From the NCBI GenBank assembly GCA_949289215.1, contig CASENC010000038.1:22319-86318 (forward strand): a stretch of 64,000 bases of DNA, written 5' to 3'. Position numbers and translations under genes: made by a program. Source of the stretch: an uncultured Bacteroidales bacterium (GTDB lineage Bacteria > Bacteroidota > Bacteroidia > Bacteroidales > Muribaculaceae). Below are positions 18,083 to 41,499 of this stretch, one piece after another (position 1 is the stretch's first letter; each line of letters starts with the position of its first letter). Below the pieces are notes generated by a model that ran no database searches, was not told the DNA's origin, and saw only the letters and a list, made by a program, of their open reading frames with translations.

Positions 18083-18090
18083 AAAAGAAT

Positions 18091-19134: not shown

Positions 19135-19159
19135 AAAAAAACGTAACGGATTTTGTGAG

Positions 19160-20197: not shown

Positions 20198-20215
20198 TTG
20201 GAATTGAGGTTGGTT

Positions 20216-22002: not shown

Positions 22003-22979
22003 TTAAAGTTTCGGTTATTGTGCCTGTTTACAAGGTGGAAACATTCATTGAGCGTTGTATCCGTTCATTGATGGAGCAGACACTTCAAGATGTGGAGTTT
22101 GTCATCGTTGATGACTGTTCACCTGACAACAGTATTTCTATTGCGCAGGCTGTCATACAAGATTATCCGGGACGAAAAGAACAGGTTAAACTGATTCGGC
22201 ATAACGTAAACCAAGGTTTGCCCGCAGCCCGCAACAGTGGTTTGACTGTTGCATCGGGCGAATATGTGTTCCATTGCGACAGCGATGATTTTGTAGAGCC
22301 CGCGATGTTGGAACAATTGTATCGAGCAGCAAAAGATGAAAAAGCCGATATCGTGTGGTGTGATTGGATGCTTTCGTTCGGACAAAATGAGCGTTACATG
22401 AAGCAACCCTCCTATGCAACACCAATGGTGGCATTAAAGGGGATGCTGAGTGGAGCGATGAAATATAATGTATGGAACAAATTAGTCTGTCGCCAACTTT
22501 ATGTGGATAATCAAATCTTGTTTCCTGCCGGTTACGGAATGGGCGAGGACATGACCATGATACGCCTTTTTGCCTGTGCGCAAAAGGTGGCGTATATTCC
22601 CGGTGGATTCTACCACTATGTGAAATTAAACAACAATGCATTTTCTAACACCTATTCAGAACGCCATTTGAAAGAATTACGCCATAATACCGATGAAACG
22701 TTGGCTTTCCTGAAAAGTAAGTGTGGAGATGCTTTGGCTTTGGACATGGAATTCTTCAAATTGGATATCAAATATCCATTTCTGATAACCGATGACAAAA
22801 AAAAATACAGACTTTGGGAAACGTGGTACCCGGAGGCTAATCAATACATAAGTTTGAATAAAAATGTTTCGCTCAGGCGGCGTATGTTGCAATTATGTGC
22901 TGTCAAGAAACAATTTTGGTTGGTTGGCTTGTATTATAAATTGGTACATAAATTTATCTACGGAATAGTATATAGATGA
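21999..22979 (+). CDS. glycosyltransferase family 2
   Basis: VSVIVPVYKVETFIERCIRSLMEQTLQDVEFVIVDDCSPDNS and CDSDD. Confidence 0.85.
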   Translation: MIKVSVIVPVYKVETFIERCIRSLMEQTLQDVEFVIVDDCSPDNSISIAQAVIQDYPGRKEQVKLIRHNVNQGLPAARNSGLTVASGEYVFHCDSDDFVEPAMLEQLYRAAKDEKADIVWCDWMLSFGQNERYMKQPSYATPMVALKGMLSGAMKYNVWNKLVCRQLYVDNQILFPAGYGMGEDMTMIRLFACAQKVAYIPGGFYHYVKLNNNAFSNTYSERHLKELRHNTDETLAFLKSKCGDALALDMEFFKLDIKYPFLITDDKKKYRLWETWYPEANQYISLNKNVSLRRRMLQLCAVKKQFWLVGLYYKLVHKFIYGIVYR

Positions 22980-24289
22980 AAGATAATGCTATAATAAAAG
23001 GGATATTGATGGTTCTCACCACTATTATCCTCAATTTCTATTTTTTCTCTATTGATTTGCGCTTTATGCCATCAGTGAATACCAAAATGGTATTGGGCGG
23101 GCTGGGCTTATTCGTGCTTGCCTATCAGTTGGTGAAGAAAGGCGGTGCATTGATCAATAAAGATACTTTCGTTTTGTCGGTGTGTGCGGCGTTGGTGTCA
23201 TTGGCCGGATTTGTCTCGGTTGTGTACAATGGCACACCCGATTACGCGTATGCTACATATTTAATATCCATGTGGGTATGGCTCAGTGCAGCTTATGTGG
23301 TTGTGACTTGGATGCGCTGGGTGCATGGGACGGTTTCGGTATTTATTGTATGTAACTATCTTATAGTTTTGTGTGTGGCGCAATGTTCTTTGGCATTGGG
23401 AATGGAGTTTTATCCCCCATTGAAGCAGGTTGTATATTCGTTGCTCGATGAAGGAACGGTGACATTCATGGAACAAAAAGATCGTCTTATGGGATTCGGT
23501 GCCGGTCTGGATATCGCCGGTTCACGTTTTGCGGCTATTTTGATAATGATACCGTTTGTGTGTATGCAATATAAGCACAAAGTTATCAAATACATACCAT
23601 TGTATATTCTGGCATTTTTCATAATATGTGTTATAGGAAATATGATAGGCCGAACTACGACGATAGGCGCAATACTCGCTGTCGCAAGTTTCTTTGTATT
23701 TTCTAAATTTTATCGGATGGATACATTCAATAAGCGGTTAGGGCTTTGGTTAATGGGTCTGTTGGTTGTCGTTGTTCCAATATGTGCCATAGCATATAAT
23801 ACGGTGCCTGAATTCCACGACTTACTGCGTTTTGGTTTCGAAGGCTTTTTCTCTCTTGCCGAGAAAGGTGAATGGGAGGTACATTCAAATGAGATGTTGA
23901 AAGAAGGATTTATCTTTCCCGACAATCCGAAAACGTGGCTGATAGGCGATGGATATTTCGGAACGACCGACTTAGACCCTTATTACACAGGCAGACGTTG
24001 GGCCGGATTCTATCGTGGATCGGATGTTGGGTATTCCCGTTTCTTGTTTTATTTCGGTCTGTTTGGTTTGTTGGCATTCTCGTTTTTTATTTTCAAGGCT
24101 GGCATGGTATGTGTACGTCGGTTCAATGCGATAAAGTATATGTTTATCGTCTTGTTGGCACTGAACTTTATATACTGGGTTAAAGTTTCGACTGACATTT
24201 TCTTGGTATTTGCTTTGTTCCTATGCATCAGTCAGAGTGAGAATGAAGAATACGAGAAATGTTATTTGATGAATAATCAAGGTCAATGA
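22976..24289 (+). CDS. wzy: Wzy-type O-antigen/capsule repeat-unit polymerase (polytopic membrane protein)
   Basis: 437 aa with about 10 or more hydrophobic segments, inside a Wzx/Wzc-dependent locus. No strong motif; the call rests on context and topology. Confidence 0.55.
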   Translation: MKDNAIIKGILMVLTTIILNFYFFSIDLRFMPSVNTKMVLGGLGLFVLAYQLVKKGGALINKDTFVLSVCAALVSLAGFVSVVYNGTPDYAYATYLISMWVWLSAAYVVVTWMRWVHGTVSVFIVCNYLIVLCVAQCSLALGMEFYPPLKQVVYSLLDEGTVTFMEQKDRLMGFGAGLDIAGSRFAAILIMIPFVCMQYKHKVIKYIPLYILAFFIICVIGNMIGRTTTIGAILAVASFFVFSKFYRMDTFNKRLGLWLMGLLVVVVPICAIAYNTVPEFHDLLRFGFEGFFSLAEKGEWEVHSNEMLKEGFIFPDNPKTWLIGDGYFGTTDLDPYYTGRRWAGFYRGSDVGYSRFLFYFGLFGLLAFSFFIFKAGMVCVRRFNAIKYMFIVLLALNFIYWVKVSTDIFLVFALFLCISQSENEEYEKCYLMNNQGQ

Positions 24290-25425
24290 AGGTTGTTTAC
24301 TGCATTTGTTCGTTGCAGAACCCGGGGGGGATGGAGCGGGTGTTGCTGAATAAGGTGTCCTATTTGGTAAAACATCAGGGTTGGGATATTACCGTGGTGA
24401 CTACCGACCAAAAGGGGAGGCCGACGTTCTATCCGTTTCCCGATGCAGTGAAGATGGTGGATCTCGGTGTCAATTATACCGATGACAATGGCAAGCATCC
24501 GCTGCAGAAAATCTTGGGCTATCTTCGTCGGAGAAGAATGCATAAAAAACGCCTTACGGCTTTGTTGCAACAGGAGCGGGCCGATGTCGTGGTTTCACTT
24601 TACCCGTCGGAGTCGTCTTTTATCCCGGATATCAAGGATGGCAGCAAGAAGGTGCTTGAACTGCATTATTGCAAGTTTTTCCGATTGCAATATAATCGCA
24701 GTGGATTGCTGGGACTTATCGACCGCCTGCGCACCCGGCAGGACGAGCGCATTGTCAGCCGGTTCGACCGGTTTGTGGTGCTGACCAATGAAGATAAAGG
24801 CTATTGGGGTAATCTGCCGAATATCAGTGTTATACCTAATGCGGCCCTTTTACTTGGTGATGCCCGTTCCGACGTGTCATTCAAGCGCGTTATTGCCGTG
24901 GGACGACTGGATTACCAGAAAGGATTCGACAGGCTTATCAATGCATGGGAATTAGTCCAAAAGAACAAGGGTTCCAATGATTGGCATCTCGACATCTTCG
25001 GGCAAGGAGAATGGAAAGAGATGTTGCAACAGATGATAGACAGCAAAGGGCTGCAAGCAAATACGCACATCTGTCCTCCCACCAAGAATATAGGTGCTGA
25101 ATATGCCCGTAGTTCACTGTTGGTAATGAGTTCCAACTATGAAGGATTTCCCATGGTGATGATAGAGGCCATGGCTTGCGGCCTGCCTGTGGTTTCATTT
25201 GATTTCCAGTGCGGACCTAAGGATATAATCAGGCATGGCGAAAACGGGTTGATGGTTGCCAATGGCGACATACAAGCATTGGCTGATGCCATGATGGATG
25301 TGATGGGTGATGACAATTTCCGGAAAATGCTGTCGGAAAATGCCCGTAAGGTAGTTTCCACTTATTCGGAAGAGGTTGTCATGAATCAATGGATTAAGAT
25401 GTTTACTTCGTTAGTTGCGAAATGA
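24286..25425 (+). CDS. glycosyltransferase family 4 (GT-B)
   Basis: GRLDYQKGFDRLI and SSNYEGFPMVMIEAMACGLPVVSFD (EX7E region). Confidence 0.85.
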   Translation: MKVVYCICSLQNPGGMERVLLNKVSYLVKHQGWDITVVTTDQKGRPTFYPFPDAVKMVDLGVNYTDDNGKHPLQKILGYLRRRRMHKKRLTALLQQERADVVVSLYPSESSFIPDIKDGSKKVLELHYCKFFRLQYNRSGLLGLIDRLRTRQDERIVSRFDRFVVLTNEDKGYWGNLPNISVIPNAALLLGDARSDVSFKRVIAVGRLDYQKGFDRLINAWELVQKNKGSNDWHLDIFGQGEWKEMLQQMIDSKGLQANTHICPPTKNIGAEYARSSLLVMSSNYEGFPMVMIEAMACGLPVVSFDFQCGPKDIIRHGENGLMVANGDIQALADAMMDVMGDDNFRKMLSENARKVVSTYSEEVVMNQWIKMFTSLVAK

Positions 25426-26651
25426 AGAAACTGTTGCAAATCAATCCCACGCTGCGCATATCCACTTCCACGGGGCGCATCATGCAGGAAATCGGGGAAC
25501 TGGCCTTGCAAAACGGTTGGGAAAGCTATATTGCCTATGGGAAAGGCCGCGATGGCATAAAGCCTTGCCGGTCGCAAATCATCCCGGTGGGCAATAGATG
25601 GAGCACCTTGTGGCATGGAGCGCAAACCCGCCTGTTTGACAATCATGGGTTGGCATCCACCCAAGCGACTAAAATATTTGTAAAACGAATAGAAGAAATT
25701 GCCCCCGACGTTATCCACATCCACAATATACACGGCTATTTCCTGAACTATAAAGTATTGTTCGATTACTTGTCGAAATGCGACATTCCCGTGGTGTGGA
25801 CGGTGCATGACTGCTGGCTTTACACCGGGCATTGCTACTATTACTCGTATGTGGGGTGTGGCAAATGGCAAACGGGATGCAACCACTGTCCGCAACAACG
25901 GAAGTTCCCGGCCAGCTTGCTGATGGACCGTTCGGCACGCAATTATGCCGATAAAAAGGCTGCATTTACGTCAATGCCCAAGGACAAGTTTGTCATTGTT
26001 CCTGTTTCTGACTGGATAAGGGAAGAAATGCGACATTCCTTTTTGAGCGAATATAATTTCCGCGTTATCCACAATGGCATCAACACTGATGTGTTCCATG
26101 TGTGCGACACTCGTGAATCGGTGTCACGATACGGATTGGCCGGTAAGCACATTTTATTAGGCGTGGCCAGCATTTGGAGCAAGGAGAAAGGCCTTGACGA
26201 CTTTATCGAAATGGCGAGCCTGTTAAAAAATGATGAAAAGATTGTGCTTGTTGGCGTCAAGCCCGAGGAGCAGAAACTGCTGCCACCAAATATATTGGGC
26301 ATATCGCGAACAGGAAATGTTCACGAACTTGCCGAGCTTTATTCAATGGCCGACGCTTTCATCAATCCCACTTGGCAAGACAATTACCCTACAGTCAATC
26401 TGGAAGCCATATCTTGCGGAACGCCTGTGGTGACTTACAGGACGGGCGGAAGCGTGGAGGCTGTTACAGAACAGACCGGCTTTATCGTAAAGCAGGGCGA
26501 CTATAAAGGCCTGCTTGAAGCTGCCCGAGCCATTCGCCGGCTGGGCAAAAGCCATTACCAACCGCTGTGCCGTGAATATGCCTTGGCACATTTTAACAAG
26601 GAAGACCGCTATGCCGATTATTTCCGTCTCTATGACGAACTGATGGCATGA
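25422..26651 (+). CDS. glycosyltransferase family 4-like (GT-B)
   Basis: ADAFINPTWQDNYPTVNLEAISCGTPVVTYRTGG. Confidence 0.7.
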   Translation: MKKLLQINPTLRISTSTGRIMQEIGELALQNGWESYIAYGKGRDGIKPCRSQIIPVGNRWSTLWHGAQTRLFDNHGLASTQATKIFVKRIEEIAPDVIHIHNIHGYFLNYKVLFDYLSKCDIPVVWTVHDCWLYTGHCYYYSYVGCGKWQTGCNHCPQQRKFPASLLMDRSARNYADKKAAFTSMPKDKFVIVPVSDWIREEMRHSFLSEYNFRVIHNGINTDVFHVCDTRESVSRYGLAGKHILLGVASIWSKEKGLDDFIEMASLLKNDEKIVLVGVKPEEQKLLPPNILGISRTGNVHELAELYSMADAFINPTWQDNYPTVNLEAISCGTPVVTYRTGGSVEAVTEQTGFIVKQGDYKGLLEAARAIRRLGKSHYQPLCREYALAHFNKEDRYADYFRLYDELMA

Positions 26652-26873
26652 AGCAATCATGAATATAGATTTTTGATTTTCAAGACATATATAAGCTCCG
26701 AGCCTTATTCTACCTATCAAAGGTTGAGTCTTTTGATAACCAGCAGCGGAGCAAATCTGTGATTAATACCAAATTAAAGAGCAATATGTGGCTCAAGTCG
26801 GGAAAGGTGTTTTGAGTGACGGCCTGACCGATGCTGAATAACCGTCTTTGTAGTATCTGTGTTTGAAATAGTT

Positions 26874-27995
26874 ATGAATGAAAATGAATTGAAAATATTG
26901 CAACTTGGCAAGTTTTATCCCATCCAGGGTGGCGTGGAGAAAGTTGCCTATGACTTGATGGAAGGATTATCTGAGCAAAACATCCGTTGCGACATGATGT
27001 GTGCCGCCACGCAAGGTGCAGGCCGGGTGATTCCCGTCAACGAATACGCGAATGTCATCTGCTGCCACACTTGGTTTAAGGCTGCTGCCACGATGATAAC
27101 GCCTCAGATGATTTTCTCATTAGGGAAAACGTGCAAACAATATGACATCATTCATGTGCACCATCCCGACCCGATGGCATGCCTTGCGCTGTGGCTTTCG
27201 GGTTACAAGGGTAAAGTCATTCTGCACTGGCACGCCGACATACAGAAGCAGCGAATGTTGCTCCGTCTGTACCGGCCTCTGCAACATTGGCTTCTGCACC
27301 GGGCCGACCGGATTGTGGTGACATCTCCGGTATATTTGGCCGAGTCTCCTTTCCTGGAAGGTGTAAGGCACAAGGCCATTTGCCTGCCCATTGGCGTGAA
27401 GGCCATGCAGCCCGAGCCTGAATTGGTGGCAAAGATTAAAAGCCGGTATCCGGGCAGGAAAATCGTCTTTTCGTTGGGTCGCCTGGTTCCCTACAAAGGC
27501 TATTATCACCTGGTCGAGGCCGCCAAATACCTTAGCGACGACTATGTGGTGCTGATAGGCGGAACGGGCATCTTGAAAGACGAATTGGAAAAAGAAATCA
27601 AGGAATTCGGGCTGCAAAACAAAGTGGAACTGCTGGGACACGTCAGCGACGAAGACCTGCCGGCCTATTACGGAGCTTGCAGCGTGTTTTGCCTGAGCAG
27701 CGTTCAACGGACCGAGGCATTTGGCATCGTGCAGATTGAAGCCATGTCGTGTGGCAAGCCCATAGTTGCCACAAATATTCCTCAAAGCGGTGTGTCGTGG
27801 GTAAATGCCCACGGTGTCTCGGGGCTGAATGTGGAACCGGGCAAAGCCAAGGAGCTGGCAAGAGCCATAAAAGAAATTACCATGGACGAAGCGACATACC
27901 GGAAATACGCTTCGGGTGCCAAAAGTCGCTACAATGAATTATTTACCAAAGAGCAAATGATAAATAACTGCATAAAGATATATAAAGGGTTATGA
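26874..27995 (+). CDS. glycosyltransferase family 4 (GT-B)
   Basis: LGRLVPYKGYYHLVEAA and SSVQRTEAFGIVQIEAMSCGKPIVATN. The ATG at 26874 is preferred over the GTG at 26859. Confidence 0.8.
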   Translation: MNENELKILQLGKFYPIQGGVEKVAYDLMEGLSEQNIRCDMMCAATQGAGRVIPVNEYANVICCHTWFKAAATMITPQMIFSLGKTCKQYDIIHVHHPDPMACLALWLSGYKGKVILHWHADIQKQRMLLRLYRPLQHWLLHRADRIVVTSPVYLAESPFLEGVRHKAICLPIGVKAMQPEPELVAKIKSRYPGRKIVFSLGRLVPYKGYYHLVEAAKYLSDDYVVLIGGTGILKDELEKEIKEFGLQNKVELLGHVSDEDLPAYYGACSVFCLSSVQRTEAFGIVQIEAMSCGKPIVATNIPQSGVSWVNAHGVSGLNVEPGKAKELARAIKEITMDEATYRKYASGAKSRYNELFTKEQMINNCIKIYKGL

Positions 27996-28663
27996 AAAGA
28001 GAAGTGACAACCTTAACTAAAACATTAGAGTTAAGTATGATGGACAGTGAACAAGAAAATTGTGATGGAATGTCGCCGGTCGAGCGTGCAATCAAGCGTG
28101 GCTTCGATGTGCTGGCAAGTGCCCTGGGCTTACTTTTGGCATCCCCATTTTGCCTGCTGATATATCTCCTTATCAAGCGCGAAGATGGCGGGCCGGCAAT
28201 CTTTAAGCAAGAGCGCATAGGCTATGGCGGGAAGCCGTTCACCCTGTACAAATTCAGGTCGATGGCTATTACTTCGGAAAAAGACGGGAAACCCGAGCTT
28301 TGCCAAAAAGAAGACAAGCGACTGACTAAAATCGGCCGTTTCCTGCGCGAACACCATTTGGACGAGCTGCCGCAGCTGTGGAACGTGTTGAAGGGTGAAA
28401 TGAGTTTCGTAGGCCCACGGCCCGAACGCAAGTTCTTCATCGACCAAATCATGGCTGTAAATCCCGACTATGAATTATTGTACCAGTTGCGTCCCGGATT
28501 GTTCTCGTCGGCAACCCTGTATAACGGTTACACCGACACAATGGAAAAGATGCTTATCCGCCTCATGATGGACCTGGAATATCTGCGCAGGCGCACGCTG
28601 TGGCTCGATTTCAAGATAATTTTCCTTACTGTGTTTTCCATCCTTACGGGAAAGAAATTTTGA
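27992..28663 (+). CDS. small monotopic phosphoglycosyl transferase (bacterial sugar transferase family; priming enzyme)
   Basis: [70 protein letters not shown]. Confidence 0.88.
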
Positions 28664-28714: not shown

Positions 28715-28999
28715 ATGGAAAATAAAGTAGTGTATCCGGCAGAAGGACTTCAATTACGAAAAGTGGGCAAGCAATACATGATTGTCAAGGCCAACGACAA
28801 TAATGTGAACATGAGCGACGTGTACAGCCTTAACAGGGTGGCGGCGCGCATGTGGGAACGGTTGGCCGAGAAGGGTGGTTGCACCGCCGACGACATGGCC
28901 GAATGTCTGTGTGAAGATTTCGATATCGACAAGGCGACTGCCTTGCACGATGTGGAACGGCAGCTTGCCGAGTGGCGCACATTCGGACTGATTTTTTGA
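28715..28999 (+). CDS. PqqD-family (RiPP recognition element-like) small protein
   Basis: 94 aa. The pattern YSLNRVAARMWERLAEKGGCTADDMAECLCEDFDIDKATALHDVERQLAEWRTFGLI matches the PqqD winged-helix layout. Confidence 0.65.
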   Translation: MENKVVYPAEGLQLRKVGKQYMIVKANDNNVNMSDVYSLNRVAARMWERLAEKGGCTADDMAECLCEDFDIDKATALHDVERQLAEWRTFGLIF

Positions 29000-29006
29000 C
29001 GAAAAC

Positions 29007-30125
29007 ATGAAAACAGCGCATAATGGAATACAGAGCAGCCCCGAACGTGAGGCTTTGCTCTCACTTTTGCGGTCGGGCTTGTGGGGAAGCGACCCCGACG
29101 ACGGGTTTTCGTGTTTTCCGTTGTCAGTCGCGGAATGGGATAATGTCTTCCGCCTTGCTCGTCAACAGACCGTAACGGGGCTGGTATTCCATGGTTTGCA
29201 GCATCTGCCCGATGTTTTGCTGCCTTCCGAGGCACTGCTGATGCGATGGGCGGCCGAAACCGATGCCATCGAGCGCAGAAACAAGAAAATGAACGCTGTT
29301 CTTAAAGATATAGTCGCCGAATTCCATAAAAGGGAATTGAATCCCATCTTGCAAAAGGGGCAGGGCACGGCCCGGTTTTACATAAATCCGCTTTTGCGTG
29401 AATGTGGCGACATCGATTTCTATTTCAACAACCGCCAGGCATGGGAGGCGGCTCTCGATTTGATGCGTTCCCGTGGCGCGGCCTTGAAGAAGCAGGGCGA
29501 CGGAAGCGTGGTTTACCGTTGGCGTGGCGTGGAAGTGGAGCATCATCAACGGTTGTTTGATTTGTACAACCCCTTCAAGCAAGGCACCTTGAACCGTGTG
29601 GAGCAACAAAAAGGGTACAGCCGGTTTGCCTTGCCGGCCGCCCCGGGCGGCGAGTCGGTAACCGTGCCGTCTCCTTTCCTGGAATTGCTGTTGCACAATT
29701 TGCACATATTGAAACATTCACTGGGGCGCGGTATAGGCTTGCGCCAACTTTGCGATATGGCGCGTGCCTGCTACCTGTTGCACGGGGAGATAAATCCGGG
29801 CGAGATGAAGGCGGTGTGCCGCAAATTGGGCATTGGCCGGTGGTGCCTGCTGTTGCACGCTTTCTTGACGCAAAAGCTGGGGTTGCCCGAGTCGTGCCTG
29901 CCATACCCCGAAACGGCCTCCACGGCACAGCCGTTGGCCGACATCGTGTGGCGGGGCGGCAATTTCGGACGGCATAATGCAAAGTTCGAGCAAAACGCCA
30001 CCGGGTGGCAGCGCAAATGCCAGACGGCGCGCTCATTTGGCGACAATGCCCGTTTTGCTTTCCGCTATGCTCCCAAAGAGGCATCGTGGTTTCTGTTACA
30101 GTTGATGAAAGGACAAATTATATGA
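29007..30125 (+). CDS. PF14907-type uncharacterised nucleotidyltransferase family protein
   Basis: GDIDFYF nucleotidyltransferase-like acidic motif in a ~370-aa helical protein. 8-nt gap after the PqqD-like gene. Confidence 0.5.
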   Translation: MKTAHNGIQSSPEREALLSLLRSGLWGSDPDDGFSCFPLSVAEWDNVFRLARQQTVTGLVFHGLQHLPDVLLPSEALLMRWAAETDAIERRNKKMNAVLKDIVAEFHKRELNPILQKGQGTARFYINPLLRECGDIDFYFNNRQAWEAALDLMRSRGAALKKQGDGSVVYRWRGVEVEHHQRLFDLYNPFKQGTLNRVEQQKGYSRFALPAAPGGESVTVPSPFLELLLHNLHILKHSLGRGIGLRQLCDMARACYLLHGEINPGEMKAVCRKLGIGRWCLLLHAFLTQKLGLPESCLPYPETASTAQPLADIVWRGGNFGRHNAKFEQNATGWQRKCQTARSFGDNARFAFRYAPKEASWFLLQLMKGQII

Positions 30126-31012
30126 TACCGACAACCTGTTATTACCGTGTGGCCGATTTCACCTTTTCGGTAACCATGGCCGGGGAAGCCGACGTGGACG
30201 CACTGCTGCCGTCGTTCAGGCCGTTCAAGGCCGGCGAGAATGGCAGCCGCCTGCTCGACTTCACGGTGGTGCCTGCGGGCGAGGTTCCCACGGCAGGCGA
30301 GGGCGATTTGCTTGAGGTGGCCGACAATGATATGGGGCACCTGAAGCTATACGCCGCAGCCGGCGGGTATGTGGTCGAGGTTGCCAATGGCAGCCACACC
30401 CACCGCATGGCAGCCACCGCCGACTTTTCTCGCGTAAAGGCCTGCATCCTGCCGCATGACCGGCGTGCGGGCAATGCGTTGTCGTCGATGTTGCGCATCG
30501 CTTTTGCCCAGGCCATATTGCTGCACGGCGGCATATCCATTCATGCTGCGGCCGTGCACTGTGCCGGTAAGGCCTACCTGTTCATGGGAACGAGCGGAAC
30601 GGGCAAGAGCACTCATGCCTCGCTGTGGATAAAGCATATCCACGGGTCGGGACTGCTGAACGACGACAACCCGGCAATACGCATCATCGATGGCAAGGCC
30701 TATGTTTACGGCACGCCGTGGAGCGGAAAGACGGCCTGCTACCGCAACCTGTCGTTCCCCATCGGCGGCATGGTGCGCCTGGCACAGGCACCTGTCAACC
30801 GTTTCCACCGGCAAGAGGGCGTGGACGCATTCGTCACTATATATCCCGGCTGCTCGGTGATAGCCGGTGACAAGCGGTTGCACAACCGGCTCTACGACAC
30901 GGTGTCGGAGCTTGCCGGAATGGTCACCGTGGGCTTCATGGAGTGCCTCCCCGATGCCGATGCCGCACAGGTGTGCCACCGGGCATTGACCGCCGGCGAT
31001 AAAGAGGCGTGA
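30122..31012 (+). CDS. HPr kinase/phosphorylase C-terminal-domain-like P-loop kinase
   Basis: LHGGISIHAAAVHCAGKAYLFMGTSGTGKSTHASLW...LLNDDNPAIRIIDGKAYVYGTPWSGK parallels the HprK core (G-x-SG-x-GKS ... DD). ATGA overlap with the upstream gene. The track start at 30005 was rejected. Confidence 0.65.
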   Translation: MIPTTCYYRVADFTFSVTMAGEADVDALLPSFRPFKAGENGSRLLDFTVVPAGEVPTAGEGDLLEVADNDMGHLKLYAAAGGYVVEVANGSHTHRMAATADFSRVKACILPHDRRAGNALSSMLRIAFAQAILLHGGISIHAAAVHCAGKAYLFMGTSGTGKSTHASLWIKHIHGSGLLNDDNPAIRIIDGKAYVYGTPWSGKTACYRNLSFPIGGMVRLAQAPVNRFHRQEGVDAFVTIYPGCSVIAGDKRLHNRLYDTVSELAGMVTVGFMECLPDADAAQVCHRALTAGDKEA

Positions 31013-31056: not shown

Positions 31057-31854
31057 ATGAATATCAACAAACAATTTCTGTGGGCAGGCTTGCTTGCCCT
31101 GTTGCTGATGACCTCATGCTCGTCGAAGAAGGATTTCATTTACCTTGCCGACATGAAGGTGGGAAACAAATACCCCATTGAATCGAAATACGAGCCTGTC
31201 ATTCACAGCGATGACCTGCTTAGTATTACCGTAAGTTGCAAAAATCCCGAATTGGCCATTCCGTTCAACATATATGGCGGCTCGTTCAAGGTGGGTACCG
31301 ACGGCAATGTGACGGCCGATGTTTCATCTTCGGCCAAAGAGAAAGGATACCGGGTTGACGTGGACGGCAACATCGATTTCCCCATCCTGGGCAAGTTGCA
31401 CATCGAGGGCATGACCGTGAGTGCCGTCAAGCAACTTATTTGCGACCTGATTGTGGCCGGCAACTACATGAAAGACCCGCTGGTGTCGATTGAGTTCCTT
31501 AACTTCAAGTACACCGTGTTGGGGGCCGTGGGCGGCAACGGCACATACTCGTCGAAGGGCGACCGCGTGACCATTCTCGATGCAATTGCCAATGCCGGCG
31601 ACCTTAATGCCAAGGCGCGAATCGACCGCGTGGCCGTCATACGCGAAATCGACGGCGAGCGGCAGATTTTCATGCACGACCTTAACAGCACCAGTATCTT
31701 CAACTCGCCTTGCTTCTACTTGCAGCAAAACGACATCGTGTATGTGGAACCGAAATACCGCAAGAAAGACAACGAAGACCGCGGCTGGCAAATCGCAACC
31801 ATGTTGCTGTCGCTTACTTCGGTCGTGTGCTCGGTGTTGTGGGTGATAAAGTAA
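31057..31854 (+). CDS. wza: Wza-type polysaccharide export outer-membrane lipoprotein
   Basis: Lipoprotein signal LLALLLMTSCSS, a Poly_export motif (DDLLSITV), and an SLBB-like segment YTVLGAVGGNGTY...ILDAIANAGDL. Confidence 0.85.
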   Translation: MNINKQFLWAGLLALLLMTSCSSKKDFIYLADMKVGNKYPIESKYEPVIHSDDLLSITVSCKNPELAIPFNIYGGSFKVGTDGNVTADVSSSAKEKGYRVDVDGNIDFPILGKLHIEGMTVSAVKQLICDLIVAGNYMKDPLVSIEFLNFKYTVLGAVGGNGTYSSKGDRVTILDAIANAGDLNAKARIDRVAVIREIDGERQIFMHDLNSTSIFNSPCFYLQQNDIVYVEPKYRKKDNEDRGWQIATMLLSLTSVVCSVLWVIK

Positions 31855-31874: not shown

Positions 31875-34220
31875 ATGCAAACTAACAATTCAACGAAGAA
31901 CGAGCAAGGCCTGAACCTGATGGACCTGCTTGTTTATCTGGCCTCAAAATGGAAGTGGTTCCTGCTTTCCATTCTGGTGTGTGGAGGCATTGCGTGGTAT
32001 AACTACGCGCGTGCGCCGCTGGTGTACTTCCGGTCGGCAACCATCATCATCAAGGACCCGTCTAACAAGACTGCTACCTCGGGCCTTGACCGTTTCGACA
32101 ACATCATCAACAAGGTTAACGTGGCCAACGAGCTTATTCAGTTCAGCTCGAAGCGGCTGCTCAGGGAAGTGGTGCAGCGTGTGCATGCCGACGTGAACTA
32201 CCGCGTGGAAGACGGCTTGCGCAGCCGCGAGCTTTACACCAAGTCGCCCGTGCTTGTCACATTCCTCGACGCCCTGCCCGAGCAGGCTTTCTCGATGGTG
32301 ATGACACCGATTGATGACAAGACGGTGTCGCTGACACGGTTCTCGGGGGATGAAAGCTCCACGGCACTCACCATCGCGCTCAACGACACGGTGGCGCTGG
32401 CCAACGGTGTGCGCATAATTGCCACTCCCACCAATTATTACAACGAGTCGTGGATGGGCCGGCCCATACAGGTGAGCAAGCGGCCGCTCGAGGCTGTAGT
32501 CAATCACTACAAGGGTGCCATCGGCATAAGGCAGGAAGACGAGGAATCATCGATACTGAACCTTGCGCTGAAGGACAATTCTCCCGAGCGGGCCGAGGAT
32601 ATGCTGAATATGCTCATCACCGTGTATAACGAGGAAGCCATCAAAGACAAGAACCAGGTGGCGGTGAACACGGCCAACTTTATCAGCGAGCGACTTATCA
32701 TCATCGAAAACGAGCTGGGCGGCGTGGAATCTGAACTGGAATCGTTCAAGCAGCGCAACCAGGTTATCGACATCGCCTCGTCGGCAAGCATGTATATGAG
32801 CGAATCGCAGAAGTACAGCACCGACGCGCTGGAGCTGGAAACGCAGTTGCGCCTTGCCGATTACATCAAGGATTACCTCACCGACCCCACCAAGGAGCGT
32901 GACCTTATCCCGTCGAACACCGGTATCGGCGACATGAACATCGAGAACCAAATCAACCTCTACAACACGGCCAAGCTGAAGCGCGACCGCCTGATTGACG
33001 ACAGCAGCGAAAACAATCCCGTGGTGCAAGAGCTCAACAATACGCTCCGTGCCATGAAGCAGAACATTATCCGCGCCGTTGACAATATGATTGTGAGCCT
33101 GAAGGTGAAGCGCAACGATGCGCAGAACCGCGAGTTGCAAGCCCAGAACCGCGTGACGGCCATCCCCACCAAGGAACGCCAGATGCTCTCGATCGAACGC
33201 CAGCAGAAAATCAAGGAAGCCCTGTACCTGTTCCTGCTTAACAAGCGCGAGGAAAACGCACTGTCGCAGGCCATGGCCGACAACAACGCGCGTGTAATCG
33301 ACCCGGCCGACGGCAGCGACGCGCCCATCTCGCCGCAGCGCAACCGCATATTGCTGCTGGGGCTGCTTGTGGGCATTGTGCTGCCCGGCGTGGGCTGCCT
33401 GCTGGTACTGTTCATGGACACCCGCGTGCATGGCCGCAAAGACCTGGAGCGGGCACTCAGTGTGCCGTTCCTGGGCGAGATACCGTTTGAGAAGAAAGCG
33501 TCGAAGCGAAAAGGTGGCGACAGCGGGGAGATAGACGAAGACGGCATCGTGGCCGAGGCCTTCCGTGTGCTGCGCACCAATATGGCTTTCATGTCGCGGA
33601 AAGACCACCCCGTGCAGGTGATTACTTTCACGTCGTTCAACGAGGGGGCCGGCAAGACATTCATCTCGCGCAACTTAGGCATGAGTTTTGTATATGCCCA
33701 CAAGCGGGTACTGCTGCTTGACCTTGACATTCGCAAGGGAACGCTGAGCCGCCACTTTGGCGACCACCACAACGGTGTAACCGAATACCTGGCCGACCCG
33801 TCGGTTGCCATCGACGACATCGTTCGCCACTTGGATGGCTTCGACCTGATTCCGTCGGGCGCGGTGGCTCCAAATCCCGCCGAACTGCTCATGGACGAGC
33901 GGCTCGACGAACTGGTGGCCGAGTTGCGCAAGCGTTACGACATAATCATAGTTGACAATGTGCCCATGGGCATGATTGCCGATGCCAGCATCGCCAACCG
34001 CATTGCCGACCTCACGGTGTTTGTGGTGCGTGCCGGTCGCCTCGACCGCCGTCAGCTGCCCGACATCGAGTCGCTTTACGAGGGCCACAAGCTGCGTAAC
34101 ATGGCACTGGTGCTCAACGGTGTTGACCCCAACAGCCACCACGGTTACGGTTACGGCTATGGCTACGGCTACGGCTATGGCTACGGTTACGGCTACGGAA
34201 AACGAAAAAAGCAGAAGTGA
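31875..34220 (+). CDS. wzc: Wzc-type chain-length determinant / BY-kinase (tyrosine autokinase) fusion
   Basis: N-terminal Wzz-like TM domain, coiled-coil periplasmic region, second TM segment, Walker A SFNEGAGKTF, A' LLLDLDIRKG, Walker B IIIVDNVP, and a C-terminal (GY)9 tyrosine tail. Confidence 0.88.
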   Translation: MQTNNSTKNEQGLNLMDLLVYLASKWKWFLLSILVCGGIAWYNYARAPLVYFRSATIIIKDPSNKTATSGLDRFDNIINKVNVANELIQFSSKRLLREVVQRVHADVNYRVEDGLRSRELYTKSPVLVTFLDALPEQAFSMVMTPIDDKTVSLTRFSGDESSTALTIALNDTVALANGVRIIATPTNYYNESWMGRPIQVSKRPLEAVVNHYKGAIGIRQEDEESSILNLALKDNSPERAEDMLNMLITVYNEEAIKDKNQVAVNTANFISERLIIIENELGGVESELESFKQRNQVIDIASSASMYMSESQKYSTDALELETQLRLADYIKDYLTDPTKERDLIPSNTGIGDMNIENQINLYNTAKLKRDRLIDDSSENNPVVQELNNTLRAMKQNIIRAVDNMIVSLKVKRNDAQNRELQAQNRVTAIPTKERQMLSIERQQKIKEALYLFLLNKREENALSQAMADNNARVIDPADGSDAPISPQRNRILLLGLLVGIVLPGVGCLLVLFMDTRVHGRKDLERALSVPFLGEIPFEKKASKRKGGDSGEIDEDGIVAEAFRVLRTNMAFMSRKDHPVQVITFTSFNEGAGKTFISRNLGMSFVYAHKRVLLLDLDIRKGTLSRHFGDHHNGVTEYLADPSVAIDDIVRHLDGFDLIPSGAVAPNPAELLMDERLDELVAELRKRYDIIIVDNVPMGMIADASIANRIADLTVFVVRAGRLDRRQLPDIESLYEGHKLRNMALVLNGVDPNSHHGYGYGYGYGYGYGYGYGYGKRKKQK
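34143..34196 (+). repeat. tandem hexanucleotide repeat (GGYTAY)x9 encoding the (Gly-Tyr)9 tail of Wzc
   Basis: Read directly: ggttac ggttac ggctat ggctac ggctac ggctat ggctac ggttac ggctac. Confidence 0.9.
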
Positions 34221-34271: not shown

Positions 34272-34457
34272 ATGAAAAAAGACAAAGAAAAGTATGAGTC
34301 TCCCGAGACAAGGAGGACTCAGGTAAACCTGGAAAACGGGTTTATGAGTGCATCGGTTGTCGATAAGGAAGAAGACCCGAGCAACGACCCGGTTGATGCC
34401 GGACATCAAGAGATTGAAGGCGATTATGATTTTTCGGATGATAACCCTTGGAGTTAA
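34272..34457 (+). CDS. hypothetical 61-aa highly acidic protein ending in ...DDNPWS
   Basis: ATG-initiated ORF filling the gap between wzc and the next gene (51 nt and 18 nt spacers). No signal peptide and no recognised family. Coding status is unproven. Confidence 0.35.
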   Translation: MKKDKEKYESPETRRTQVNLENGFMSASVVDKEEDPSNDPVDAGHQEIEGDYDFSDDNPWS

Positions 34458-34475: not shown

Positions 34476-36938
34476 ATGAAACTTAAATCGTATTTGTATG
34501 CACCGTTGTGCAGTGCAATGGTGCTTTTTGCAATGTCGGCTTGTTCCGACGATTTAATCGATAACGACAATGGCAATCGCCCCCAGGGCAATGGCATTCA
34601 GTTTGGTGCAAGAGCCTCGTATGCCGGTGATGACACCCGCACCGAGTATGGCGATTACAGCCAGGACGGGCTCAGCCAGGAGATACGCTGGACGGCAGGC
34701 GACCAGGTGGAAATTTATTCGCCCGAATCGCCCAATTCCAAGCAGACGGCATATGAAGTTGACTACATCGGCGGTGCCGAAGGTACCGGCGACCGTGGCT
34801 CGGCACTTCTTGCATCACTTGGCGGCGACGGCCTGCAATGGAACAGGACTAACGCAACGCAAAAGTTCTATGCCATCTATCCTTCGGTGCAAAGCATAGC
34901 GAACACTGCCGTTAAGAACATGGTAAGCTTTGAGAACGGTGTCCTCAAGGGATATGTGCCTATCAACCAGCAGCACACCATCACTAAGGACGGTACAGTT
35001 TGGACGGCTACCCCAAATATGGATTACCTTTACATGGCTGCCATACAGGAAAATCCGGTGCCTGCCATAGACGAGGACGGTGCTGTGAACCTTAGCTTCC
35101 AACCGTTGACCACCACGCTGGAAATCACCATCGAAGGCCCCACCGAAAGGCCGCTTGCTTCGTTGAACGTATTTTCAGACAATGTGCCTGTGGTAGGTCA
35201 CTTCACCTGCGACCTGACTGCCGAGGCCGGCACGGACGGTTATCCGCAGTGCGTATCGACGCAAGAGGGAACTACCAACACTTATGCCACCGTCAGCCTT
35301 TACTATGATGATAACGGCACACAGCGACCGTTGTCGTTGGCCGAAGGCGAAAGCGTCACGCTCAATGTGTTCTTGTTGCCTGTAGAGCCGCTTACTAATG
35401 TGAAAATCCGTATTGCCGGCTTCAACTCGGCAAGCAAGAGCATGACGCTTGACACCGACCCGAAGACGGGCAGCAAAATCACGCTTAATCCTCACAAGAA
35501 GACTCGCGTGACCATTCCTGCGCCTAAGATTGGTACGGAGACGAACAACTGGATTACCGGCATCGAGGACAACGTGTATGTGTCGCAGCTCTCAATCCCG
35601 GGTACGGCCAACTCGTTCTCTTATAATTACCCCCAAAATGGTGAAAATCGTACATGGTATGTGGCACAGACTGCCAATTTTGAGAAGCAGTGGAATGCAG
35701 GTATCCGCTGCTTCGAGCTGAAGTGCCCCGAAACTACCGGCGACCTTGGTAACGTTGTCTTGCAGTGTAACCGTAATGATTTGGGTATTACATTCAAGCA
35801 GGCGGTTGACATGATATGGGACAAAGTGCAAAATTCTGGCGAATTTGCCATGATTATCCCGGCATACGAGTCCGGTTCCGGTCACGAAAGCGGCTCGAAT
35901 GCCGCGCACACCGCTGTGCGCAACTTTGCCAATGCGCTGAACACGTTCTATGACAACAACTCGCAATATGAATATATCACCTACGGACGCAATATCACTG
36001 TGGGCCAGGCTCGAGGCAAGCTGATGTTTGTGGCACGCATCACCTCGGAAGAGGATGAGGGTGCAATCAGCGACATTATTCCAAAACAGGGTGTATTCAT
36101 CGAGGGCTGGGGTTCGCTGAAAGACCTGTGGGAACGCCGCGGATATGGCAAGGCTAACTGGGCTAAATGGAGCAATAACAGCTTTGATGGCAACAGTACG
36201 GACTATATGGAGTATTACATGGTTAACGGAAACACCAGTTCAGACCTCAGCTTCTCTTATGCCGGACCTACCGGGCCAACCGGTGCGAAGAATTTCATGC
36301 ACACAACCATACGCAGTGATGCTTCTACCGGTACAGCTTATATACATGACTGGAACCGTGTGTCGCCTAAAAACAAAAATTATAACTTATATAATAATTC
36401 GTCTTATGGACGGGATTATGTACAAAACTGCTACTGGCCGGAATCATTTATAGAAAAATGTGGGGATGTATGGAACACATTCCTGGCTGCTATCGAGGAT
36501 AACAACAATCAACAGGGTAGTACATTCTATATCAATTCGCTTGACGGATACTATATAGATGAAAACATTCCATTGAGTTATAAGCCATATATCGCAGGTC
36601 GTGGAGATGAAGGAGGAACTTGGCCTTCTGATTGGTCTTACGGTTACGGCGATGGTGGTACAGCCGGTAACATTCAGGCCTATGCAGCCGATATTAACAA
36701 CTATTTCTATGGCAAAATTCTTGACTATGGTGCCGACAATATCTATGGCCCGATGAATGTGGTATTGTTGGATATGGTTTACGCATCGGACGATATGACC
36801 GACCCGGGTTCGTATCTGCCATCGGTAATCATCAACAATAACTATCGCTTCCCGTTGATTACAAAAAAAGATAACGGCGGAAGCAGCACCAACAGCGCCG
36901 ATGCCTCTTACAGCAACGGCGGCAACGTTTGGGAGTAA
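34476..36938 (+). CDS. surface lipoprotein: fimbrillin-like N-terminal region fused to a PI-PLC-like (PLC-like phosphodiesterase TIM barrel) domain with substituted catalytic residues
   Basis: Lipobox LFAMSACS and WTAGDQVEIYS (fimbrillin-like). The C-terminal motifs LSIPGTANS, AGIRCFELK, VVLQCNRN, GKLMFVARI, TFYINSLDG and MNVVLLDMV are collinear with Bacillus PI-PLC motifs IPGTHDS, ARIFDIR, IVLHHGP, GKIVLLKR, LYINFTS and WVIQDY. Confidence 0.6.
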   Translation: MKLKSYLYAPLCSAMVLFAMSACSDDLIDNDNGNRPQGNGIQFGARASYAGDDTRTEYGDYSQDGLSQEIRWTAGDQVEIYSPESPNSKQTAYEVDYIGGAEGTGDRGSALLASLGGDGLQWNRTNATQKFYAIYPSVQSIANTAVKNMVSFENGVLKGYVPINQQHTITKDGTVWTATPNMDYLYMAAIQENPVPAIDEDGAVNLSFQPLTTTLEITIEGPTERPLASLNVFSDNVPVVGHFTCDLTAEAGTDGYPQCVSTQEGTTNTYATVSLYYDDNGTQRPLSLAEGESVTLNVFLLPVEPLTNVKIRIAGFNSASKSMTLDTDPKTGSKITLNPHKKTRVTIPAPKIGTETNNWITGIEDNVYVSQLSIPGTANSFSYNYPQNGENRTWYVAQTANFEKQWNAGIRCFELKCPETTGDLGNVVLQCNRNDLGITFKQAVDMIWDKVQNSGEFAMIIPAYESGSGHESGSNAAHTAVRNFANALNTFYDNNSQYEYITYGRNITVGQARGKLMFVARITSEEDEGAISDIIPKQGVFIEGWGSLKDLWERRGYGKANWAKWSNNSFDGNSTDYMEYYMVNGNTSSDLSFSYAGPTGPTGAKNFMHTTIRSDASTGTAYIHDWNRVSPKNKNYNLYNNSSYGRDYVQNCYWPESFIEKCGDVWNTFLAAIEDNNNQQGSTFYINSLDGYYIDENIPLSYKPYIAGRGDEGGTWPSDWSYGYGDGGTAGNIQAYAADINNYFYGKILDYGADNIYGPMNVVLLDMVYASDDMTDPGSYLPSVIINNNYRFPLITKKDNGGSSTNSADASYSNGGNVWE

Positions 36939-40768: not shown

Positions 40769-40790
40769 GAGACGCAAAATTTTGCGTCTC
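40769..40790. repeat. REP-like perfect 22-nt palindrome GAGACGCAAAATTTTGCGTCTC, copy 1
   Basis: Read directly. It shares the extended unit GTTGTAGAGACGCAAAATTTTGCGTCTCCACGTGGG with copy 3. Confidence 0.9.
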
Positions 40791-41007: not shown

Positions 41008-41499
41008 ATGAGTAGTATGCAACCCGATGAATTGCCGGTGAATAACGATGCGTTTTTTGCCGAGGTGGAGCAGATGCTTGCGCAGGGACACAGTGTGACG
41101 CTGCGCGGCCGTGGCGGCAGTATGTACCCCTTTATAGCCGACGGGCGCGACAGCGTGGTGCTGAGCCGGGCCGCCGGGCTGCAGGTGGGCGACATAGTGC
41201 TGGCCCGGGTGCCCGGCAAGGGATATGTGCTGCACCGCATCTACCGGCTGCAGGGCGACCGGCTTACCCTGATGGGCGACGGCAACTTGCAAGCCACCGA
41301 GCAGTGCCGCCGGGCCGACGTGCGCGGCCGGGTGACCGAGATATTGCGCGGCGGGCGGCGAGTGGAATGTGGGTCGCGAGCCGAAAGGTTCAGGGCGGCC
41401 TGCTGGCGCAAGCTGCTGCCGGTGAGGCGTTACTTGCTGCGCGTGTGCCGATTGTGTCAAACTTTAAAAGAAAGGAATCGAGAGTTATGTCGTCATTGA
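41008..41499 (+). CDS. S24/S26-like serine peptidase domain protein (no TM segment seen)
   Basis: RGRGGSMYPFIADGRDSVVL (GxSMxP nucleophile box) and YVLHRIYRLQGDRLTLMGDGN (resembles the S26 KRVIGLPGD box, with His in place of Lys). Confidence 0.55.
   Translation: MSSMQPDELPVNNDAFFAEVEQMLAQGHSVTLRGRGGSMYPFIADGRDSVVLSRAAGLQVGDIVLARVPGKGYVLHRIYRLQGDRLTLMGDGNLQATEQCRRADVRGRVTEILRGGRRVECGSRAERFRAACWRKLLPVRRYLLRVCRLCQTLKERNRELCRH

Follow-up and report, generated by a model that had tools for sequence, protein, structure and literature searches.

The DNA analysed here (the window) is a stretch of 64,000 nt from an uncultured Bacteroidales bacterium of the Muribaculaceae (assembly GCA_949289215.1, contig CASENC010000038.1). 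It carries at 28715–31012 three genes (the trio) for a PqqD-type protein, a PF14907 nucleotidyltransferase and a P-loop kinase, which lie inside an exopolysaccharide locus between the genes of the priming phosphoglycosyl transferase and of the export protein Wza. The trio is read, with a probability of about 0.55, as one third of a seven-component system of peptide maturation and export across Bacteroidota that is similar to the pathways of peptides made on ribosomes and modified after translation (RiPPs); the components would be a peptide, its partner lipoprotein, the PqqD protein, the kinase, the PF14907 nucleotidyltransferase, an S24/S26-like peptidase and an ATP-binding cassette (ABC) exporter. 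In the window this system is split into three blocks around wza and wzc. An earlier note on the same DNA had described the trio as an orphan cassette, repurposed from a lasso-peptide cluster and coupled to capsule export; the protein families, the absence of a lasso cyclase and of radical-SAM enzymes and the link to Wza/Wzc were borne out, whereas the orphan status, the absence of a protease and the repurposing were not.

The PqqD-type RiPP recognition element (RRE; a peptide chaperone of 94 aa, PF05402) is encoded at 28715..28999 (+), the PF14907 nucleotidyltransferase (372 aa, catalytic motif G134-D135-x-D137) at 29007..30125 (+) and the P-loop kinase (296 aa; fold of phosphoenolpyruvate carboxykinase, PEPCK, and HPr kinase; PF27840 'ScmC' family) at 30122..31012 (+). 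The start of the third gene was set at ATG 30122 by alignment with 28 homologues; a longer, GTG-started reading exists. With the priming transferase gene ending at 28663 and wza starting at 31057, the intergenic distances from the priming transferase through PqqD, nucleotidyltransferase and kinase to wza are 51, 7, −4 and 44 nt. Three co-oriented, tightly packed open reading frames (ORFs) on the + strand were found at the coordinates given in the earlier note, together with the ATGA overlap at 30122–30125 and the motifs GDIDFYF, GTSGTGKST and NDDN in the translations; the gap between the first two genes, given there as 8 nt, was measured as 7 nt (29000–29006). Related loci were collected by scanning one genome per species for the kinase, which gave at least 595 loci; the census was made on the best 80 of these with 10-kb flanks each, the window proteins being mapped onto the loci and all ORFs clustered, and its fractions describe the nearer relatives.

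The peptidase and the exporter were found in the window 10 kb downstream of the trio. A serine peptidase of the S24/S26-like type (163 aa, predicted to be cytoplasmic, candidate leader peptidase) is encoded at 41008..41499 (+), and an ABC exporter with fused permease and ATPase (545 aa; ABC_membrane, E = 1.7e-30; ABC_tran, E = 7.2e-27) at 41487..43124 (+), the last 13 nt of the peptidase gene being shared with the start of the exporter gene; the exporter is without a C39 peptidase domain. The peptidase was matched by Peptidase_S24 (E = 9.7e-8; 32.2 bits, gathering cut-off 23.3) and by the archaeal-type signal peptidase I model (E = 1e-6). The boxes G-x-S-M-x-P-F, H-R and G-D-G-N do not vary among 40 family members, and an N-terminal membrane segment or a signal peptide is absent. 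The protein looks like a cytoplasmic Ser/His (S26B-like) peptidase, its activity and general base being predicted from sequence. Family members in related loci are up to 57% (peptidase) and 69% (exporter) identical to the window proteins, and the exporters encoded within the module at other loci are 40–69% identical to that of the window. Of 31 distant loci, 28 have the S24 peptidase gene next to those of the kinase and the PqqD protein; in loci L008, L018, L087 and L094 the S24/ABC pair comes after lipoprotein and OmpA genes downstream of wzc. The trio can therefore not be called an orphan: both proteins are its constant partners elsewhere, often contiguous with it, and both are present at 41008–43124. 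The statement of the earlier note that no leader protease is encoded in the 64 kb is untenable, because the candidate S24/S26-like peptidase at 41008–41499 lies within them.

A candidate precursor peptide of 61 aa is encoded at 34272..34457 (+); it has a lysine-rich N-terminus, a leader-like part YESPET...VNLENGFMSAS and an acidic variable tail that ends in ...NPWS. The hint at this ORF in the earlier note was a good one. The ORF belongs to a conserved peptide family encoded beside genes of the module, and clear relatives of it directly follow wzc at other loci. A profile search of a library of 1.84 billion sequences gave 573 representatives at E ≤ 1e-3 (clusters at 50% identity), all 150 listed ones being 45–93 aa long. 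The family alignments indicated invariant Y8, P11 and E21 and a nearly invariant S28 in a common layout: lysine-rich start, Y-E-x-P-x-T, V-E-L-E-x-G-(F/I)-(M/C)-x-A-S and a variable tail of 12–45 residues, usually acidic, with Trp close to the end. Most members have T, L, I or V at position +5 of the YxxP leader motif. A short form of the peptide reads MKENxTKETYVKPESEIINIEVEQPILSGS-APDFGNGGRWGF. A C-terminal Ser as the conserved feature, by analogy with the phosphorylation of paeninodin cited in the earlier note, was rejected: the window peptide ends in Ser, its relatives in D, E, Q, K, N, F, W or G. The cores hold no conserved acidic residue at core positions 7–9, and short cores are without one. 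The 61-aa ORF is a candidate for the RRE-bound, modified precursor on the grounds of co-localisation and motif analogy.

The peptide gene is followed at 34476..36938 (+) by the gene of a weakly fimbrillin-like lipoprotein (820 aa, lipobox ...MSAC), as a lipoprotein gene always follows the peptide gene; a protein identical to that of the window carries a weak Mfa_like_1 annotation. Every family peptide in the loci precedes a large protein, and a signal peptide and a lipobox Cys were found in nearly all of the 34 distinct proteins in this position. One common lipoprotein family was rejected: phmmer all-against-all comparison gave at least six unlinked sequence families, some of them weakly fimbrillin-like.

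The kinase family comprises 3188 sequence clusters at E ≤ 1e-3; its loci span Prevotella, Bacteroides, Phocaeicola, Alistipes, Muribaculaceae, Sphingobacterium, Pedobacter and Elizabethkingia, and the closest species representative in the scan is Prevotella sp. CAG:1185. Three arrangements were distinguished. Arrangement A, that of the window (GT4-GT4-GT4-priming transferase-PqqD-nucleotidyltransferase-kinase-wza-wzc; GT4, glycosyltransferase family 4), occurs in Bacteroidaceae, Prevotellaceae, Muribaculaceae, Rikenellaceae and Cryptobacteroides. Arrangement A' is contiguous, GT4-(ca. 150-aa protein)-PqqD-nucleotidyltransferase-(ca. 540-aa protein)-kinase-wza-wzc, and occurs in Sphingobacterium, Pedobacter, Elizabethkingia and one metagenome-assembled genome (MAG) of Dysgonomonadaceae. 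Arrangement B is a free-standing operon, kinase-(ca. 150-aa protein)-PqqD-(nucleotidyltransferase, optional)-(ca. 540-aa protein), whose genes overlap or nearly abut and whose flanks are housekeeping contexts differing from locus to locus; among 130 neighbouring genes of 29 free-standing loci, no Pfam family was seen in more than 4. The ca. 150-aa and ca. 540-aa proteins of arrangements A' and B are the S24/S26-like peptidase and the ABC exporter, and Sphingobacterium, Pedobacter and Elizabethkingia have the five-enzyme block complete and uninterrupted. Bacteroidales carry the system interspersed with the genes of a conserved exopolysaccharide locus; other lineages carry it as a contiguous block beside wza-wzc or as a free-standing operon.

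The wza gene directly follows the kinase gene in 41 of the 73 loci with at least 1.5 kb of downstream sequence, and in 35 of the 42 loci with a kinase that shares at least 40% identity with that of the window; preservation of the order PqqD-nucleotidyltransferase-kinase-wza at this frequency is far beyond chance. The link to Wza/Wzc proposed in the earlier note is systematic, both in these close relatives and in Sphingobacterium, Pedobacter and Elizabethkingia, i.e., over three classes of Bacteroidota.

A reverse census was started from the peptides (7 look-ups). For all seven family peptides the next gene downstream encodes a large protein, which proved to be a lipoprotein in each case where its sequence was inspected; wherever the contig was long enough, the peptides lie beside kinase, peptidase, PqqD, nucleotidyltransferase and exporter genes. 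Loci L081, L083 and L092 are compact operons (AraC-type regulator-peptide-lipoprotein-ScmC-type kinase-Peptidase_S24-PqqD) without polysaccharide genes, NTP_transf_5 and ABC genes coming next where the contig continues. Three look-ups led to loci of the window type, in which the trio was seen upstream or the S24/ABC pair downstream; for the exact window peptide, only short contigs were found, and these repeat the context of the window itself. In Sphingobacterium corticibacterium the genes stand in one run, wza-wzc-PqqD-kinase-nucleotidyltransferase-peptide-lipoprotein-x-S24-ABC, and in two Bacteroides loci the peptide-lipoprotein pair is divergent from the enzyme operon. Linkage of this pair to the enzymes in several independent gene orders is the strongest argument for joint function. 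The free-standing operons with the peptide and without polysaccharide genes argue against a module repurposed from a lasso cluster as a capsule enzyme set; the system therefore appears to be autonomous and peptide-directed.

Sequence and fold comparisons were made for each protein of the trio. The PqqD protein was matched by PF05402 (E = 3.2e-13); its best NCBIfam match was TIGR04353, the HPr-rel-A PqqD model (29.0 bits, cut-off 35), followed by the model of the lasso PqqD proteins (B1 chaperones). The latter matched 23 of 24 PqqD family members, all under its strict cut-off; only 8 of the 24 matched TIGR04353 at E < 0.01. The nucleotidyltransferase, with more than 1100 relatives, was matched by PF14907 (E = 7.1e-40; 137.6 bits, gathering cut-off 31.2). 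Its residues G134, D135, D137, E178 and H180 are invariant in 35 homologues, the motif G134-D135-I-D137 being a GxDxD of the Pol-beta type. A sequence search of solved structures gave no match for the nucleotidyltransferase and sub-threshold P-loop matches to PEPCK and HprK only for the kinase; a comparison by fold was needed. The AlphaFold model of the nucleotidyltransferase (mean predicted local distance difference test score, pLDDT, 90) has a Pol-beta-type nucleotidyltransferase fold; best Foldseek matches: 5uvd (E = 2e-4) and the aminoglycoside nucleotidyltransferase ANT(2'')-Ia (template modelling score, TM, 0.68).

By sequence, the kinase passed no curated family threshold: ScmC TIGR04249 (best NCBIfam match), E = 3.4e-5, 23.3 bits (cut-off 125); HprK_rel_A TIGR04352, E = 7e-4, 18.8 bits (200); Hpr_kinase_C, E = 2.4e-3, 17.9 bits (33.3); full-length HprK/P model (hpr-ser, TIGR00679), 18.7 bits (240); HprK_rel_B TIGR04355, 16.9 bits (200). 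Twelve diverse Bacteroidota kinases gave a best E of 3.2e-6 with TIGR04352, far under its cut-off (ca. 17–22 bits against 200 where scored). The newer Pfam model PF27840 'ScmC' is annotated in the database on many homologues, P0001 (99% identical) included. The AlphaFold model of the kinase (29 sequences; pLDDT 92, predicted TM score 0.90) was matched in Foldseek by ATP-dependent PEPCK (E = 2e-7) and HprK/P (E = 1e-5); the superposition on HprK/P (1kkl) is limited to the P-loop domain (TM 0.53 on the target), and PEPCK is the better fit for the model as a whole. Residues H141, G156, G159, G161, K162, S163, D181 and D182 are invariant in the 29 sequences (window and 28 homologues). The conserved motif of the lasso-peptide kinases, as listed for BsfK, is H148-G163-G166-G168-K169-S170-D186-D187 (PMC10368454); the window kinase keeps all eight of these residues (H-G-G-G-K-S-D-D). 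The three assignments of the earlier note held at the level of family or superfamily, PqqD falling into PF05402 and the nucleotidyltransferase into PF14907 by hidden Markov model (HMM) search, and the kinase, sub-threshold by HMM, being placed by its fold; none of the three belongs to the curated NCBIfam systems named there, whose models (TIGR04352, TIGR04353, TIGR04355) exist and were not reached at cut-off by any protein of the trio. One kinase homologue, P0060 (Xylanibacter rarus MAG), bears the NCBI name 'phosphoenolpyruvate carboxykinase' and shares the segment HASA...GxSGTGKST; the name is probably a misnomer that comes from this segment, and such labels on some members of the kinase family look worth correcting.

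From the fit of each protein to its family we infer the following course of maturation. The PqqD protein would take up the peptide's YxxPx(T/L/I/V) leader as an additional β-strand and present the peptide to the kinase. In lasso precursors the leader motif YxxPxL spans −17 to −12; BsfK, a kinase of the HPr type, is strongly stimulated by the B1 RRE in its phosphorylation of the precursor and does not accept the core alone (PMC10368454). The kinase would then phosphorylate a hydroxyl group; the near-invariant Ser at the leader/core junction (S28) is the only candidate acceptor available in all members, because some cores are without Ser, Thr and Tyr and the C-terminal Ser is not conserved. Where present, the nucleotidyltransferase may add a nucleotidyl or glycosyl group to the phosphate or hydroxyl, as in pseudomycoidin, in whose cluster the PF14907-type nucleotidyltransferase places one or two hexoses onto phosphoserine (PMC8498205). 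The leader would be cut off in the cytoplasm by the S24/S26-like peptidase, in the role of the lasso B2 protease, and the product carried over the inner membrane by the ABC exporter, presumably to act with the neighbouring surface lipoproteins and the polysaccharide exported through Wza/Wzc.

Several observations weigh against such a peptide pathway. Around roughly one in two of the free-standing modules no family peptide was found within 10 kb, and none was found in the contiguous loci of Sphingobacteriia and Flavobacteriia; a leader-only HMM and a relaxed regular expression gave nothing convincing in Pedobacter, in Elizabethkingia, in the Sphingobacterium modules without Wza/Wzc or in the Prevotella modules with the gene of a ca. 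140-aa secreted protein. The nucleotidyltransferase is missing from many modules. Some putative cores hold no Ser, Thr or Tyr, and the C-terminal Ser of the window peptide is not conserved; the leader-cleavage site and the protease role are assigned from family membership; and the kinase fold, being also that of PEPCK, leaves room for a non-peptide substrate. That the genes adjoin wza so strictly in three classes is a hint of some part played in polysaccharide export, on which the proposed course is vague. Synteny with wza and free-standing operons can be reconciled by a product whose action is on, or together with, the exported polymer or the surface lipoproteins nearby. A bolder version, to which only a low probability is given, is a new class of ribosomal peptide whose junction Ser is phosphorylated and then nucleotidylated or glycosylated, the product being physically coupled to the exopolysaccharide pathway: it could be joined by a phosphodiester to the polymer or its lipid carrier as primer, cap or anchor, or could be a secreted cofactor that gates export through Wza/Wzc and assembly of fimbrillin-like lipoproteins. 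If true, a peptide-polysaccharide hybrid pathway would be common in gut Bacteroidales.

The view taken in the earlier note, that of a module directed at glycans or export, is considered unlikely: the lipid-linked repeat unit, the polysaccharide or Wzc/priming transferase would be the substrate of the kinase and nucleotidyltransferase, the PqqD protein would be an adaptor, and the whole an accessory of Wza/Wzc export. It would account for the packing of the trio between the priming transferase gene and wza (gaps of 51, 7, −4 and 44 nt) and for the adjacency of wza in the 35 of 42 close relatives and in Sphingobacteriia and Flavobacteriia; the kinase resembles PEPCK, a small-molecule kinase, and the nucleotidyltransferase fold also matches sugar- and alcohol-phosphate transferases (FKRP) and the sugar-acting aminoglycoside nucleotidyltransferases. 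However, the same genes stand free in unrelated housekeeping contexts (29 loci, 130 neighbours, no Pfam family more than 4 times) and form compact operons with the peptide and without polysaccharide genes, PqqD proteins bind peptides, and a dedicated peptidase and ABC exporter have no obvious role in the modification of a glycan. A substrate among the proteins is a somewhat fainter prospect; here the adjacent lipoprotein or fimbrillin-like protein would be processed by the S24/S26-like peptidase and phosphorylated or nucleotidylated, and the small YxxP protein, rather than being a precursor, would have an accessory role as chaperone, donor strand or regulator. A lipoprotein gene always comes right after the peptide gene (lipobox in nearly all of 34 distinct proteins), modules without a detectable peptide still adjoin the gene of a secreted protein or lipoprotein (families of 130–160 aa and ca. 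300 aa), and S26B-type signal peptidases for a single substrate are known, SipW being the one dedicated to TasA. Against this, the S24-like protein should be cytoplasmic, because it is without membrane anchor and signal peptide, whereas lipoproteins are processed outside the cytoplasm; at least six unrelated lipoprotein families make a poor common substrate, and a peptide that joins a conserved leader to a hypervariable tail is built as precursors typically are.

Least probable by far is a decaying, non-functional remnant of a paeninodin-type lasso cluster that has lost its cyclase and B2 protease, although the combination of PqqD, HPr-type kinase and PF14907 is otherwise described only in lasso clusters. 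The genes are full-length and their catalytic residues invariant, the kinase has more than 3000 and the nucleotidyltransferase 1100 relatives, synteny is kept over three classes, and a different peptidase family has been consistently recruited. In the Pfam scan of the window (43 of ca. 50 ORFs, all ORFs of at least 340 aa included) no Asn_synthase match (lasso cyclase), no radical-SAM domain and no transglutaminase-like B2 protease was found, as the earlier note had held for the cyclase and radical-SAM enzymes; nor are cyclase, B2 protease or radical-SAM enzyme recurrent among the 130 neighbours of the 29 free-standing modules. A canonical RiPP core directly adjoining the trio in related genomes, which according to the earlier note would make the trio an ordinary remnant, was not recurrent in the loci inspected. 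The remnant is close to refuted by these findings, and the seven-component peptide system is kept as the preferred reading.

The exopolysaccharide locus around the trio is of the ordinary Wza/Wzc type. Upstream of the trio, the + strand encodes a GT2 glycosyltransferase (21999–22979, Pfam Glycos_transf_2), a multi-pass membrane protein of 437 aa, a likely polymerase (22976–24289, no Pfam match at E ≤ 1e-5), three GT4 glycosyltransferases (24286–25425, 25422–26651 and 26874–27995, Glycos_transf_1) and the priming phosphoglycosyl transferase (27992–28663, Bac_transf, E = 7.5e-60); this block, 21999..28663, is found in the same order at 55–75% identity in related loci. The ORF at 22976–24289 represents a conserved family in related loci, of which a fetched member looks multi-pass and hydrophobic; it is probably a Wzy-type polymerase. 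Another conserved ORF, 18091–19134, is without Pfam match at E ≤ 1e-5. Downstream of the trio follow, both on the + strand, the Wza-type outer-membrane polysaccharide export protein (31057..31854; Poly_export, E = 1.9e-16, and SLBB_2) and the Wzc-type chain-length regulator and tyrosine autokinase (31875..34220; NCBIfam Wzc, E = 1.4e-50; eps_fam domain, 135 bits, cut-off 108), which ends in a (GY)8 tail. With a Poly_export and SLBB protein and a Wzc that has a bacterial tyrosine kinase domain and a Tyr-rich tail, the locus belongs to the Wza/Wzc (OPX/PCP-2a) export systems. The C-terminal Tyr cluster of Wzc (ca. 34140–34217) is encoded as a perfect repeat, HHGYGYGYGYGYGYGYGYGKRKKQK.

Between the lipoprotein gene and the S24/ABC pair lie the genes of a fimbrillin-like (Mfa_like_1) protein of 717 aa (37042..39195, +; PF13149, E = 3.3e-12), found in the same position in L087 and L095, and of an OmpA-family outer-membrane protein of 399 aa (39290..40489, +; PF00691, E = 4.3e-16), whose place between lipoproteins and S24/ABC pair is kept in L087, L094 and L095. 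The 22-nt palindrome GAGACGCAAAATTTTGCGTCTC occurs upstream of the peptidase gene in three exact copies (40769–40790, 40851–40872 and 40919–40940; 0 expected by chance), confined to the 520-nt gap between the ompA-like and S24 genes; it could be a REP-like element, a terminator set or an operator, and it is uncertain whether it is part of the peptide system. The strongest terminator-like hairpin of the region (34500–34524; 11 pairs and a T run) lies within the signal-peptide codons of the lipoprotein gene after the peptide gene. An attenuator in this place was rejected, the 90 nt downstream of the peptide gene being no better folded than background in 31 homologous loci (mean z +0.58); the hairpin lacks conservation in these loci and is probably due to chance. 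In a Bacteroides MAG (L037), six tandem paralogous lipoprotein genes (ca. 510 aa) were found around the locus at 500–3900 and 14200–20700, at least two of them preceded by a YxxP peptide gene of their own, which suggests that the peptide-lipoprotein unit can be amplified. In free-standing modules of the Prevotella type (L046, L055, L066, L068, L074, L076, L078, L079), a conserved gene for a protein of 130–160 aa with an N-terminal signal peptide precedes kinase-S24-PqqD and is itself preceded in several of them by an rpoD-like sigma-70 gene; no ABC exporter, nucleotidyltransferase or YxxP peptide was seen near these modules.

The rest of the window encodes upstream glycosyltransferases, a flippase, aminotransferases, UDP-galactopyranose mutase and an integrase, and downstream Fur, PurA, UvrA, a helicase and enzymes of histidine utilisation. 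A tyrosine integrase gene (3182–4390) lies at the 5' end of the polysaccharide locus, and the glycosyltransferase block at 9000–15000 has 30–40% GC against 48% of the window; integrase and low-GC block look like the exchangeable part of the locus, as compared with the conserved part at 22–43 kb. The four GC values counted by hand in the earlier note were exact (63.3, 61.7, 33.3 and 48.3%); the contrast drawn from them stems mainly from the low-GC variable glycosyltransferase block at 9–15 kb. GC contents: trio, 57%; wza-wzc, 55%; S24/ABC pair, 61.5%; downstream housekeeping genes, 49%; whole window, 47.7%. In the 80 loci, the kinase, nucleotidyltransferase, ABC, Wzc, OmpA and GT4 genes lie 3–5 points above the locus mean in ca. 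90–100% of cases. The trio as a GC island or recent transfer was rejected, because high GC is general to the conserved genes of these loci and in the window is common to wza/wzc, the ompA-like gene and the S24/ABC pair. Two further genes are unrelated to the peptide system: that of a protein with a type IX secretion C-terminal domain (CHU_C) at 46320–47678 and that of a 1051-aa protein with a Schlafen/AlbA_2 domain at 60526–63681.

The system is represented by more than 3000 kinase sequence clusters and at least 595 loci in species representatives, yet full-text literature searches gave no description of it, and it goes unmentioned in a survey devoted to the RiPP clusters of Bacteroidales (PMC10352776). 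If the preferred reading is true, a peptide pathway widespread in gut Bacteroidales would be left unflagged by mining tools keyed on cyclases, radical-SAM enzymes and lanthipeptide synthetases, and in a possibly new RiPP logic it would combine RRE, kinase and nucleotidyltransferase with a leader peptidase of the S24/S26 type, which has not previously been described in RiPP systems. The hypervariability of the peptide (573 clusters at 50% identity) and the diversity of the lipoproteins suggest diversifying selection at the cell surface. The fixed place beside wza/wzc ties the pathway to capsule and exopolysaccharide export, a main determinant of colonisation and of interactions with phage and the immune system. 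The system is open to experiment, since a defined precursor, four enzymes and an exporter could be reconstituted in E. coli.

Of the known systems, the Wzx/Wzy-dependent loci with Wza (OPX, outer-membrane polysaccharide export) and Wzc (PCP-2a, polysaccharide co-polymerase) share with the window an ordinary priming transferase, glycosyltransferases, flippase, Wza and Wzc; no published locus of this kind with an RRE/kinase/nucleotidyltransferase cassette between priming transferase and wza was found in the full-text searches. The HPr-rel-A system (TIGR04352 and TIGR04353; also HprK-related kinase B, TIGR04355) likewise combines a PqqD chaperone with a distant relative of HPr kinase, but is itself uncharacterised, and the window proteins score under all its cut-offs (PqqD, 29 vs 35; kinases, ca. 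17–22 vs 200). The SynChlorMet cassette (ScmC, the PqqD homologue ScmD, ScmE/ScmF) also has a PqqD partner, and kinase homologues are annotated with its PF27840 'ScmC'; it differs in its radical SAM/SPASM enzymes, in place of which the present system has peptidase, exporter, nucleotidyltransferase and lipoprotein, and the TIGR04249 score of the window kinase is 23.3 bits against 125. As with S26B-type signal peptidases that have private substrates (SipW-TasA of Bacillus), a peptidase with the boxes GxSMxP/HR/GDGN is encoded beside its presumed substrate; unlike SipW, the window peptidase is without membrane anchor, presumably cytoplasmic, and accompanied by an RRE, a kinase and an ABC exporter.

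The closest likeness is to the clusters of phosphorylated and phosphoglycosylated lasso peptides (paeninodin pade, pseudomycoidin psm, Bradymonas bsf: A, B1, B2, C, D, K, N). Common to both are a discrete PqqD protein, a kinase with the motif H...GxxGxGKS...DD, a PF14907-type nucleotidyltransferase, an ABC exporter and, in the candidate precursor as in the lasso precursors, a leader with Y-x-x-P-x-(aliphatic or Thr) ca. 20 residues ahead of the presumed cleavage site. In contrast to these clusters, the window system is without an Asn-synthetase-like cyclase, so that no lasso can be formed; it has an S24/S26-like serine peptidase instead of the transglutaminase-like B2 protease, in an equivalent operon position; its putative precursors belong to an unrelated family, have either long acidic tails or short cores rich in Gly and Trp, and lack a conserved C-terminal Ser; and it comes with an obligatory partner lipoprotein, in the context of a Wza/Wzc export locus and in the phylum Bacteroidota. 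By this comparison, the system of the window appears to be one of RRE-guided peptide maturation distinct from the lasso clusters, and an apparently undescribed RiPP-like system.

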